Source of the DNA: Promethearchaeota archaeon
Lineage (GTDB): Archaea > Asgardarchaeota > Lokiarchaeia > Sigyniarchaeales > Promethearchaeaceae
Length of the DNA stretch: 32,000 nucleotides
Direction of reading: 5' to 3'
NCBI GenBank assembly: GCA_016933055.1
Contig: JAFGBS010000033.1
Location: forward strand, 30,001 to 62,000
Shown here one piece after another: positions 19,073 to 27,244 of this stretch (positions are counted from its first letter, which is position 1; each line of letters opens with the position of its first letter). The position numbers were made by a program, and so were the translations under genes. Below the pieces are notes generated by a model that saw nothing but the letters and a program-made list of their open reading frames with translations, had not been told where the DNA came from and did not search any database.

Positions 19073-19981
19073 TTATTTAGGGATTCTCAAACTCCTGATT
19101 GATTTTAAATAATTTTTAAAGAACCAGCCGACAAAGCTCATCTCATCTTCTTTTAGATTTGCCTTTTCTAATGAATTATAATAGGATTTCCTAATGTTAG
19201 CAGGGATATCAAACATAGGATATCTGTTTTGAAATAGAATGAAATTCATTAGTAATCTTGCCATTCTGCCATTACCATCATCAAAGGGGTGAATTGATAC
19301 AAAACGAAGATGCATTAAACAAGATAGAAGCACGGGATGAATCTTTCTAGGGTTTTCTTCATACCAGATAAATAATTGATCCAATAAATCTTCACAATCG
19401 AAACCCCCTGGAGGAGGTACATAGTTACTTCCACTGATGTATATTTGCCCTTTTCTTATCAAACCAGCAAAGTTAGTCCTATTTGGGTGGAGATTAAAAA
19501 TGGATTTATGCCATTTAAGAATCACACCCATACTTAAATCTGTAGTATCAATTGAATTTACCATATTTTCGTAAATTTTCATATGGAGTTTTGCTTCAAC
19601 GATATGATCGGTCGATTTATTTATTGGAACTTCTGGTTCATTTATAACCAATTCTACATCCCGTAAAGTCAATGTTGATCCTTCAATTTTGTTTGTATTA
19701 TGGGTAAATCTTATCCCGAAATCCTTTAGATGCTCTGCTCTTAGTAGACTGGGAATAGATTCTAATTTTTTATTGTAATCATTCTTTATTTCTTCGATCT
19801 CTGCTATCCATCGTTTATCCACGATTGTTTGAATAAATTCTTCCTTAATTTCTTCCATATTCTCCGGCAATTCCTTACCAATTTCTTTATCGATGGTTTT
19901 AACTTGATGTTCTTCTCGATAATTATAGATAAGGTAATAATATTCATACCCTAGAACGGATTTTTTTTTCACTGTAACCAT
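19073..19981 (-). CDS. Fic-domain protein (class II, N-terminal autoinhibitory motif) with an extra N-terminal beta-rich domain
   Basis: Canonical HPFDDGNGRMAR motif, inhibitory TNKIEG motif and an N-terminal KKSVLGYEYYYLIYNYRE...EIG segment. Confidence 0.93.
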   Translation of the reverse strand: MVTVKKKSVLGYEYYYLIYNYREEHQVKTIDKEIGKELPENMEEIKEEFIQTIVDKRWIAEIEEIKNDYNKKLESIPSLLRAEHLKDFGIRFTHNTNKIEGSTLTLRDVELVINEPEVPINKSTDHIVEAKLHMKIYENMVNSIDTTDLSMGVILKWHKSIFNLHPNRTNFAGLIRKGQIYISGSNYVPPPGGFDCEDLLDQLFIWYEENPRKIHPVLLSCLMHLRFVSIHPFDDGNGRMARLLMNFILFQNRYPMFDIPANIRKSYYNSLEKANLKEDEMSFVGWFFKNYLKSIRSLRIPK

Positions 19982-19989
19982 ACTTATAT

Positions 19990-20041
19990 TTACCCATACA
20001 AATAATTAAATTTTGCGAATGTTATGAAAATGTAGGGGTAA
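19990..20041. promoter_or_regulatory. Inverted-repeat site 1: TTACCCATACA-N30-TGTAGGGGTAA
   Basis: 11-bp arms (1 mismatch) at 19990-20000 and 20031-20041, starting 9 bp upstream of the Fic start. The spacer holds a minus-strand BRE/TATA-like CGCAAAATTTAATTA. Confidence 0.7.
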
Positions 20042-20053
20042 GAACAAATAATT

Positions 20054-20077
20054 TTCAATACTAGCGCTATAATTGAA
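20054..20077. repeat. 24-bp imperfect palindrome TTCAATAC-TAGCGCTA-TAATTGAA
   Basis: 10 of 12 symmetric pairs. Confidence 0.55.
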
Positions 20078-20163
20078 CGCTGCCGAAGAAATATTTTCGT
20101 TAAAAATGACTATTTTGCTGCGATATACATTTAAATCGATCGTGCAAGATAATAAAAATTAAT

Positions 20164-20215
20164 TTACCCCTACAAAATATCTTAATATATAATAATTTTT
20201 ATATTGTAGGGGTAA
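20164..20215. promoter_or_regulatory. Inverted-repeat site 2: TTACCCCTACA-N30-TGTAGGGGTAA
   Basis: Perfect 11-bp arms at 20164-20174 and 20205-20215. The spacer is exactly 30 bp, as in site 1, and contains TATA-like TTAATATATAAT. Confidence 0.75.
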
Positions 20216-20260
20216 AAAATTTCTTTGCATCAATATAAGTTATTTAATTGATTAATCAAC

Positions 20261-20585
20261 ACCTATTCTGCTCTTTTGAGGGAGTAGGTAAAAGATTAAA
20301 CGTAAAACTATTATAACAATGCTCCTAACGTCAAGATCAGAAACCCATTAGGGTTCTTATGAGTTTTAGAAACGTCTATGCTACAACTTATGTAGTTGTT
20401 CGGTTGAATTACAGAATAGGCTTGTAGCGTAGTTGTAGAAGGGAAAATTCCAAATACACCGTGAAAGCCCATAGCATGCTTTTTGAGTAATAAAGATAAT
20501 TTATGCTTGTGAATAGTACAATTGATAAGAGCTCGTACCTATACCATCAATCACCTATCCGGATGAATAGGGTAATTATTAGGTA
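20261..20585. other. ORF-free, hairpin-rich region (candidate structured RNA)
   Basis: Hairpins at 20261-20289, 20342-20355, 20383-20399 and 20536-20585. Long-range complements CCTATTCTG/CAGAATAGG and CTACAACT/AGTTGTAG. Confidence 0.3.
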
Positions 20586-20608
20586 TCTCCGCATAGTTTT
20601 ACCTTAGT

Positions 20609-20989
20609 TCAGCTTTCTGATAGCACTGTTTTCGAAAAATCACGCCAATCTGCCAAGGAAGAAAGGATAAGCAACTTCTCCCCAGGAATACCAAATTCAG
20701 TCAAAGAGATATCCCCGATAATAATGTTTCTTCCTCGAGCTCCAATAACCTTGAAAGAAGATTCTGTTTGAGATATTTTTTCTAGAATTTTGATATTCAC
20801 AATCTCATCTAAACTCACTGCACCCTCGTATCCTTCGTATTCTTTTTCAAAATAATATTTGGCAGTATTATCCTCCCATTTCATCACCAATTGCTTTACA
20901 TTTTCGGGAGGTTTGGTGATCAACTCCCGCCATTTGAACCGAAATCTGTGCACCCCCCTTTTGTCGGAAGGATTTTCATTTTTACTCAT
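20609..20989 (-). CDS. Hypothetical protein
   Basis: 126-aa ORF with an ATG start, 26 bp downstream of the co-oriented dehydrogenase gene. No recognised motif. Confidence 0.65.
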   Translation of the reverse strand: MSKNENPSDKRGVHRFRFKWRELITKPPENVKQLVMKWEDNTAKYYFEKEYEGYEGAVSLDEIVNIKILEKISQTESSFKVIGARGRNIIIGDISLTEFGIPGEKLLILSSLADWRDFSKTVLSES

Positions 20990-26402: not shown

Positions 26403-27008
26403 TTAATATACTAATTCAAAATCATAGATTTGCTGGATTAAGTTTTTCAAAGAGTTTTCAAGATGCTCTACTGAACGGATTCCTAAACAAATAATTTTGG
26501 AATTCGAGAATAATAAGAACGCACCACCTTCTTCCAAATCTCGGATGATGGCTGCGGGAAACTGCTCAGGTTCATATATGCAATTCATTAAAGTAAGGCA
26601 AGCCATTTCTAAATTAATTCTTTTATTTAAATTAGTCATAGCAACAAAATTTTGGATGGATATTGCGAATTCAGTATATTTAATCCGTGCTTTAGTAAGT
26701 ACTTTCTCGATTTGCTGCTTTATCTCAGGAATTTGGTCTTCACGTTTCAATCCAGTTATAATCATTTTCCCATTTTTGAAAATTATTACAGACACATCAC
26801 CAACTTTAAATAACACACATGGGAAACGATTGAGAGATCGAACATCAATGACGGCTTCAATTTTTGTAAAATCAATATCTTCTTGCTTATTTTCTAATTC
26901 GAGAATACCAAGCGCTACAATATTAGTAATGCGATAAGTAAACTCAATTTCCTGAGAAAGCTCGGAATTTTCCACGTAAAGTGTTGTATATTCGGAATAT
27001 TGCTCCAT
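26403..27008 (-). CDS. tbp: Divergent TATA-box-binding protein (TBP) paralog
   Basis: Two TBP repeats: ITNIVA...RFP...IIFKNGKMIITG and IQNFVA...YEPEQFPA...LLFSNSKIICLG. The start is likely the ATG at 27008 (ORF track uses TTG at 27023). Confidence 0.88.
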   Translation of the reverse strand: MEQYSEYTTLYVENSELSQEIEFTYRITNIVALGILELENKQEDIDFTKIEAVIDVRSLNRFPCVLFKVGDVSVIIFKNGKMIITGLKREDQIPEIKQQIEKVLTKARIKYTEFAISIQNFVAMTNLNKRINLEMACLTLMNCIYEPEQFPAAIIRDLEEGGAFLLFSNSKIICLGIRSVEHLENSLKNLIQQIYDFELVY

Positions 27009-27244
27009 TATTTTACCCTTCAATTTGGTTTAAGTCAATTCATCTAATTTTGTCGATAATTTGAAACACATAATTTTACTCTTATTACTTATTATGAGCA
27101 TTTTTGTTAGAAACATTACAATGCTTTTTCTGATAACATTTTAAAGTCCATTGATCTTCTATTTCTGTTGATCTTATAAAGATCTTTGAACACCATTTAT
27201 TTCGATATTTTTTTATATTGGATATTATCTGGATAATACATTTT

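Follow-up and report, generated by a model that had tools for sequence, protein, structure and literature searches.

The Fic locus and its twin inverted repeats

The window, i.e. the whole stretch of 32,000 nt that was analysed, is part of a Promethearchaeota genome (G000) of 3.76 Mb, assembled in 36 contigs and with a GC content of 35%, the relatives of which include Promethearchaeum syntrophicum (G010; protein P0021). It carries a gene for a Fic family protein, the nearest ORFs in the window being 466 and 627 bp away. The ORF at 627 bp is the next one upstream (20609-20989, same strand), and no family match was found for it. Two long-spaced inverted repeats lie between the two genes, and the features of the locus are as follows:

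19073..19981, minus strand: Fic gene, encoding P0001 (302 aa); PF02661 match and translation
19862..19981, minus strand: region coding for the N-terminal domain (residues 1-40), a candidate DNA-binding domain; AlphaFold2 model
19990-20000: proximal arm of site 1, TTACCCATACA on the forward strand and TGTATGGGTAA in gene orientation; sequence, one mismatch
20003..20010, minus strand: TATA box, TTTAATTA in gene orientation; sequence and a conserved box in relatives
20011..20017, minus strand: putative BRE-like purine-rich stretch CGCAAAA, directly upstream of the TATA box; sequence and an A-rich consensus in relatives
20031-20041: distal arm of site 1, TTACCCCTACA in gene orientation, at about -60 to -50; exact
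20042..20163: unique stretch of 122 bp between site 1 and site 2; matches only itself in the genome, absent in relatives
20163-20175 and 20204-20216: site 2, perfect 13-bp arms TTTACCCCTACAA and TTGTAGGGGTAAA; candidate second (auxiliary) operator

A reading of the sequence alone had described the motif TTACCC(A/C)TACA-N30-TGTAGGGGTAA as occurring twice, 174 bp apart, with three perfect arms, one arm with a single mismatch and spacers of equal length. This description was confirmed. Site 1 spans 19990-20041 and site 2 spans 20164-20215 (core 11-bp arms at 20164-20174 and 20205-20215, both exact), which gives a start-to-start distance of 174 bp; both spacers measure 30 nt and the mismatch is located in the arm at 19990-20000. 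That arm is separated by 8 nt from the Fic ATG, which puts it at about -19 to -9, and it takes the same position in the relatives.

The twin inverted repeats are genuine and exceed chance expectation by a wide margin. When one mismatch is allowed, the arm motif has five matches in the window against 0.48 expected, a number that was reached in none of 100 shuffles. The exact 11-mer is found only four times in the 3.76-Mb genome, and three of these copies are at the Fic locus. The fourth, on contig C17, is located inside a coding ORF and has no partner at N30, for which reasons it was set aside as a chance match. In a scan of the whole genome for paired arms (at most two mismatches per arm, spacer of 0-100), convergent pairs at N30 were recovered at the Fic locus only, the remaining pairs having two mismatches per arm or a different spacing or orientation.

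Promoter architecture

The sequence-only reading had placed the BRE and TATA elements of the Fic gene in the spacer of site 1, and this placement is supported. In gene orientation the spacer ends with CGCAAAA-TTTAATTA-TT, that is, a BRE-like stretch followed by a TATA box. When the promoters of 31 relatives were aligned, with the proximal arm as anchor, a ATTTATATAT box (TTTATATA-type) was conserved 2-3 nt before the proximal arm, with an A-rich stretch in front of it and with the ATG 8-9 nt behind the arm. In the window, 25.5 nt separate the center of the TATA box from the A of the ATG downstream, and in the relatives this distance is about 26-27 nt (26.5 nt in most). The canonical distance between TATA box and transcription start in archaea is about 26-27 nt. 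The start of the Fic transcript is therefore predicted to coincide with the ATG, i.e. the mRNA would be leaderless, and the distal arm would consequently not be transcribed.

The situation is probably somewhat different in the Promethearchaeum clade, where the proximal arm includes a Shine-Dalgarno-like GGGTGA located 5-6 nt before a GTG or TTG start codon. In this clade the transcription start probably lies within the arm, so that the arm would be transcribed as part of a short leader. The single RNA run that was found covers the Promethearchaeum Fic locus L013 and consists of long assembled contigs of even depth, from which starts, ends and strands are absent. The window genome encodes four TBP paralogs, one of them in the window itself (26403-27023) and the others on contigs C15 and C17.

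Conservation of the palindrome across archaea

Fic orthologs were gathered from 41 and then from 161 genomes of the same class (about 600 Mb), and homologues were added from DPANN contigs and from a scan in which each prokaryotic species was represented by one genome. After removal of duplicates, 51 loci encoding a Fic protein with the same N-terminal motif were retained. An inverted repeat (9-nt arms with at most one mismatch, a spacer of 22-36, located within -75 to +15) is present at 41 of these 51 loci, compared to 7.7% of 2635 other ORF starts in the window genome and 7.8% of shuffles, where it should be kept in mind that the 51 relatives are not independent, even though they cover five or more phyla. 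The loci span relatives within the Lokiarchaeia, the Woese-, Aenigm-, Pace-, Nano- and Micrarchaeota, the Thermoplasmata, and the genera Nitrosopumilus and Nitrosotenuis of the Nitrososphaeria.

The general form of the site, TTAnnnnnACA-N30/31-TGTnnnnnTAA at -62 to -9, ending 8-9 nt before the ATG, is shared by about 27 loci of the Asgard class. Outside this class the arms of a Woesearchaeote and an Aenigmarchaeote Fic gene are nearly the same as those in the window (TTACCCCTACA and TACCCCCTACA), the GC-rich Thermoplasmata have arms of the form TTGCCCCTACA, and the same arrangement is found at the Fic genes of Nitrosotenuis and Nitrosopumilus; the spacers are shorter in the palindromes of the Pace-, Nano- and Micrarchaeota. 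At its five central bases the arm differs from lineage to lineage (CCCCT, TCTCT, CAACT, TAACT, CCAAC, CCCTT and others) and even among the Fic paralogs of a single genome (G006, G010), yet changes are always mirrored in both arms and the outer TTA and ACA are retained. The two genes of G006 have the cores CCAAC and CCCTT, and Promethearchaeum syntrophicum MK-D1, which is in culture, carries three Fic genes of this kind. The recurrence of one architecture with different, symmetric arms supports the earlier proposal of half-sites about four helical turns apart over that of a simple duplication.

The palindrome follows the N-terminal domain of the Fic protein. Strong palindromes (10-nt arms, at most one mismatch) precede 37 of the 51 Fic genes that encode the N-domain and only 4 of 63 Fic genes that do not, the latter being mostly bacterial, with start codons taken from the longest ORF. 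The co-occurrence check that had been suggested along with the original observation came out positive, in that exact palindromes adjoin Fic orthologs and lie almost nowhere else in the 161 genomes. Copies of the exact CCCCT palindrome are restricted to the immediate vicinity of the Fic genes in the window genome and in G001. The exact TCTCT palindrome occurs at twelve places, ten of which are immediately upstream of a full Fic gene. An eleventh adjoins an N-domain ORF that is truncated by the end of its contig, and the twelfth is an intergenic orphan in G077.

This orphan (L141; contig C70, 439-489) is a perfect GTTATCTCTACA-N31-TGTAGAGATAAC palindrome that has no Fic gene nearby and lies about 160 nt upstream of an ORF for a metallophosphoesterase-like protein of 360 aa. 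The Fic gene of G077, on another contig, has the same operator. The orphan may be another target of the regulator, or else the relic of a lost cassette. Long-spacer palindromes, e.g. GTTATACCGT-N30-ACGGTATAA, were also seen just upstream of a few bacterial Fic genes that lack the archaeal N-domain (L089, L128 and L074).

The genomic surroundings of the Fic gene are not conserved. Within about 1.5 kb to either side of the gene, Fic was the only family common to the 17 ortholog loci that were examined first, and the nearest upstream ORFs at 47 Fic loci vary in identity, distance and orientation. Throughout one genus (g9; L030-L044) a divergent AAA_18 gene (adenylate-kinase/Fap7-like) is found 143-242 nt upstream of Fic, where a gap of 143 nt holds one operator site and gaps of more than 200 nt hold two; this is local synteny only. 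The Fic gene itself is sporadic (36 of the 161 genomes), multi-copy and non-syntenic, a distribution that would fit an accessory, toxin-like or defence-like role.

The second site and the adjacent DNA

In at least 14 relatives (within L026-L040) a second palindrome abuts the first with a period of 53 bp, i.e. five helical turns, and two abutting sites are also present at the Fic gene of G001, a genome of the same genus. The locus L029 (G122) has three tandem palindromic sites with the same 53-bp period, from -168 to -9 relative to the Fic start. The cassette shared by the window genome and G001 consists of the gene and site 1 only, and the homology ends exactly at 20041/20042. Site 2 of the window can best be read as the usual second operator, displaced by 122 bp through inserted or replaced DNA.

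These findings bear on the proposal that one regulator clamps two divergent promoters, that of Fic and that of a non-coding RNA transcribed from a TATA box in spacer 2 along the plus strand into hairpin-rich DNA. This proposal lacks support. At least 14 relatives have the two sites side by side, no TATA box at a fixed place is shared by the distal-site spacers of the relatives, and the DNA described as rich in hairpins belongs to a dispersed repeat. The ORF-free DNA that follows site 2 (about 20248-20489) represents a single copy of a repeat of about 240 nt, of which at least 15 partial copies (68-83% identity) occur on at least nine other contigs of the window genome. The copies share the 5' end TTAATCAACACCTATTC as well as internal self-complementary blocks, and the family could represent a MITE or a family of small-RNA genes. 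Rfam gave no credible family, either for the window or for 19900-20700, and a search for tRNAs found none. Across the relatives there is thus no support for a conserved second divergent promoter dedicated to an RNA, although one confined to this genome might exist.

The Fic protein and its N-terminal domain

P0001 belongs to the Fic family (PF02661, E-value 2.7e-16, 60.6 bits against a cut-off of 24) and, judged by its motifs, it is a class II FICD-like AMP-transferase. The active-site motif HxFx(D/E)GNGRxxR is found as HPFDDGNGRMAR at residues 231-242, of which F233, G236, N237 and R242 are invariant across 47 Fic homologues. The inhibitory-helix motif of class II, (S/T)xxxE(G/N), is found as TNKIEG at residues 96-101, in the same chain and N-terminal to the core; E100 and G101 are conserved and a helix is modeled at 78-99. 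The closest relatives of solved structure are the eukaryotic FICD and Fic-1 proteins (26-28% identity; E-value 2.8e-22; Z 29.4), behind which the bacterial class II proteins rank, but given the rampant transfer of Fic genes this closeness alone says nothing about ancestry. The core also matches the SoFic defence model of PADLOC (E-value 3.3e-30), over profile positions 54-258 of 361 only.

The structure of P0001 was modeled with AlphaFold2 on an alignment of 47 homologues (pLDDT 96.2); a single-sequence AlphaFold run reached a pLDDT of 35 and was uninformative. In the model, the N-terminal domain forms a three-stranded antiparallel beta sheet (strands 2-9, 12-23 and 26-35) followed by a helix (42-75), and this beta(3)+helix unit is modeled with a pLDDT of about 95. 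Its consensus reads MVxxxKxxxxGxxYYYLxxSxRxxGKxxxxxKYLG. Neither sequence nor profile searches with the domain against Pfam, NCBIfam and the PDB gave a match above chance level. The topology was compared to the beta(3)-alpha DNA-binding fold of AP2/ERF domains and of the N-domains of the Tn916 and lambda integrases. Structural look-alikes of residues 1-48 in the ESM Atlas are the N-termini of DDE transposases and nucleotidyltransferases, and the best solved look-alike that binds DNA is the AP2 domain of PfSIP2 (6sy0_A; Z 4.5, tied with unrelated folds); none of the matches to solved DNA-binding domains was significant. The Atlas matches had also pointed to DUF6788, a lead that was dropped, as none of 21 relatives had a member of this family above the cut-off and no paper was found. 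A search for helix-turn-helix families in P0001 found none, and the chain ends at residue 302, just after the Fic core (helix 281-296). We infer DNA binding by the N-domain from its co-occurrence with the palindrome and from its modeled topology; homology to a known DNA-binding domain is not demonstrated.

The 5' end of the gene contains a run of nine A's (19961-19969), corresponding to codons 5-7 (KKK in strand beta-1). Such runs of A9-A10, which are slippage-prone, recur at the same place of the Fic genes in relatives. In the Fic ortholog of G005 (L051), the A-run is directly preceded by an in-frame stop, and a canonical start is lacking there.

Proposed autorepression and its alternatives

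We consider it fairly probable, on the comparative evidence given above, that the palindromes are operators through which the Fic gene is repressed by its own product, by way of the N-terminal domain. The three-stranded beta-sheet domain would contact the half-sites, and the protein would probably act as a dimer, the two DNA-reading heads of which are placed about 41 bp apart (41-42 bp; four helical turns) on the same face of the helix. With the proximal arm located between the TATA box and the predicted start, its occupancy would block the recruitment of RNA polymerase or the opening of the promoter, and a second site, abutting or nearby, would add cooperativity. Negative autoregulation of this kind would hold a potentially toxic AMP-transferase at a low and buffered level. 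The Fic N-domain had been named as a possible regulator in the sequence-only reading, and it is indeed the best candidate for the binder, since the palindrome tracks the domain (37 of 51 genes with it against 4 of 63 without).

A separate host transcription factor, encoded in trans, could bind the same operators in place of Fic. Such a factor would accommodate the missing homology between the N-domain and known DNA-binding domains, as well as the orphan TCTCT palindrome of G077, which is located away from any Fic gene and could be explained by a general factor. It would also agree with the way in which the operators diverge, because the N-domain tracks this divergence no better than the rest of the protein does. 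In a Mantel-type test the operator distance correlated with the distance between Fic cores (rho 0.42) and with that between N-domains (rho 0.29), and the N-domain had no partial effect that reached significance (p 0.37), so that a specific co-evolution of protein and DNA is not demonstrated. Two further results do not favor the main reading either: one and the same operator core, CCCCT, goes together with N-domains that are just 28-40% identical, and the residues that separate the CCCC-type from other operators are scattered over the whole Fic protein. Two of the six most discriminating columns are nevertheless positions 5 and 29 of the N-domain, with K or R in most CCCC-type proteins and rarely elsewhere.

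Several observations nevertheless make a trans-encoded factor rather unlikely in our view. The paralogs of one genome carry different arms, each of which would need its own factor, and this factor would have to be duplicated along with each gene. No neighboring gene is conserved that could encode it, the cassette keeps its architecture in unrelated contexts across five or more phyla, and the palindrome accompanies the N-domain and not the Fic cores that lack it.

If Fic does bind the sites itself, it might do so as an activator or an architectural factor, for instance by clamping the DNA around TBP/TFB, which would amount to positive autoregulation. The arms flank the TATA box and do not cover it. 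A point against the main reading is that two 35-kDa subunits could hardly span 41 bp of straight DNA as a dimer; the bend induced by TBP would bring the arms closer together, in a manner that would suit a dimer of limited reach. The idea that the protein acts as a ruler was abandoned: sites of N30-33 go with linkers of 61-67 residues and five sites of N19-26 with linkers of 68-90, which is too few and inconsistent. Archaeal repressors, e.g. MDR1, LrpA and Phr, typically block the recruitment of RNA polymerase around -19 to -9, and this is where the proximal arm lies. Since, in addition, the one characterized Fic autoregulator, CccR, is a repressor, and since positive feedback is hard to rationalize for a potentially toxic enzyme, activation seems very unlikely.

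Finally, it is highly improbable that the inverted repeats work as nucleic-acid hairpins (a stem-loop in a 5'-UTR or an antisense RNA, a terminator, or a recombination or mobile-element end). The conserved TATA box in the "loop", at a distance of 26-27 nt from the ATG, speaks for a function as DNA, and it places the distal arm in front of the predicted start. The loops of 30 nt are AT-rich and unstructured, the stem of site 1 is no more stable than shuffles (z -0.5), the Rfam search gave no match, and in the sense strand 61 of the 83 arm mismatches would not allow wobble pairing. In favor of hairpins, base pairing, too, would preserve symmetric arm changes, G:U-compatible mismatches (22) are in modest excess over A:C mismatches (10), and the proximal arm of the Promethearchaeum clade contains the Shine-Dalgarno-like word. 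Site 2 also gives a stable RNA fold (-19.3 kcal/mol, z -4.2), which follows from its perfect arms. The more specific reading as a mobile element, an attachment site or the end of a MITE or IS was rejected because the arms lie only upstream of the gene, so that they do not flank it, and are not repeated in the genome.

Comparison with known Fic systems

Self-repression of a Fic gene by its product has a characterized precedent in CccR of Yersinia pseudotuberculosis, a Fic enzyme whose dimer represses the promoter of its own gene through AGATAATCAT-N26-ATGATAATCT, i.e. two 10-bp inverted repeats with a 26-bp spacer that overlap the core promoter elements (PMC9755527). The archaeal locus resembles this system in that a long-spacer inverted repeat (here with 11-bp arms and N30, around BRE and TATA box) overlaps the core promoter of its own gene, in that no separate antitoxin gene is used for regulation, and in that the DNA-reading heads of the dimer are widely spaced in CccR and are proposed to be so here. 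The two differ in the protein as well as in the promoter. The C-terminal helix-turn-helix of the CccR type is lacking in P0001, which has the N-terminal beta domain instead; the CccR promoter has sigma-70 -35/-10 elements, whereas the archaeal one has BRE and TATA elements and is probably leaderless; the spacer is 26 nt there and 30-31 nt here, where tandem sites are common; and CccR is a secreted T6SS effector, whereas nothing suggests secretion of the archaeal Fic protein. The palindromes in front of the bacterial genes L089, L128 and L074 hint that CccR-like self-repression may be more widespread among Fic genes.

P0001 can also be compared to the class II Fic enzymes that are fused to a DNA-binding domain, such as CbFic2 and proteins of the SoFic type, its own such domain being a candidate. 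The binding of DNA drives the dimerisation of CbFic2 of Coxiella burnetii and switches the enzyme from AMPylation to deAMPylation (PMC10628234). These proteins have a C-terminal winged helix where P0001 has its candidate N-terminal beta domain, CbFic2 binds DNA with no known specific operator, and the C-terminal part of the SoFic model is missing in P0001. The analogy suggests that DNA could control the activity of the archaeal enzyme as well. Taken one step further, the operator might, besides serving repression, scaffold the FICD-like enzyme as an inactive or deAMPylating dimer, much as CbFic2 is affected by DNA and FICD by dimerisation, so that release, e.g. upon virus infection or stress, would at once unleash AMPylation and de-repress the gene. 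The N-domain would in that case be a new and easily re-programmed DNA-reading domain that provides each Fic paralog with a private operator. We regard this extension as unlikely.

With FICD/HYPE the archaeal protein shares the class II architecture, including the inhibitory glutamate helix with the (S/T)xxxE(G/N) motif, but FICD has a membrane anchor and TPR domains where P0001 has the beta-sheet domain. Neither DNA binding nor control of its own gene is known for FICD.

The pairs Phd/Doc and AbrB-Fic, finally, are subject to the autoregulation that is typical of type II toxin-antitoxin systems (PMC2701414). Autorepression of the archaeal Fic gene, as proposed here, would likewise hold down an enzyme of the Fic/Doc fold by operator binding at its own promoter, and the distribution is sporadic and mobile in both cases. 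A small co-transcribed antitoxin gene, as in type II systems, was not found at the 17 and 47 Fic loci compared above; there is no separate antitoxin gene, and the inhibitory helix and the putative DNA-binding function reside in one polypeptide.

Implications

Fic enzymes are widespread and potentially toxic modifiers of proteins, and to our knowledge little is known about their control in archaea. Searches of the full-text literature found no description of archaeal Fic autoregulation, of the N-terminal domain or of the operators. The module had been put forward as possibly undescribed, which may hold for the archaeal form, on which no paper was found, and not for the self-repression of a Fic gene via a long-spacer palindrome, which was described for CccR (PMC9755527).

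If the proposed autorepression is correct, the locus would represent a pan-archaeal circuit made of one autoregulated gene, the product of which combines enzyme, intramolecular inhibitor and repressor in one chain. It would imply the existence of a small DNA-binding domain without an annotated family, the specificity of which shifts between paralogs and which would be useful for studies of protein-DNA recognition and as a source of orthogonal archaeal repressor/operator pairs. It would also provide a rare and clear cis-regulatory element for the Asgard archaea, on a promoter with a predicted leaderless start. Were the operator to act as a scaffold of the enzyme as well, then the circuit would be a one-gene toxin-antitoxin or defence switch found across the archaeal domain, including the Asgard relatives of eukaryotic FICD. 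The proposed autorepression would also give the closest prokaryotic relatives of eukaryotic FICD a regulatory context that can be tested.
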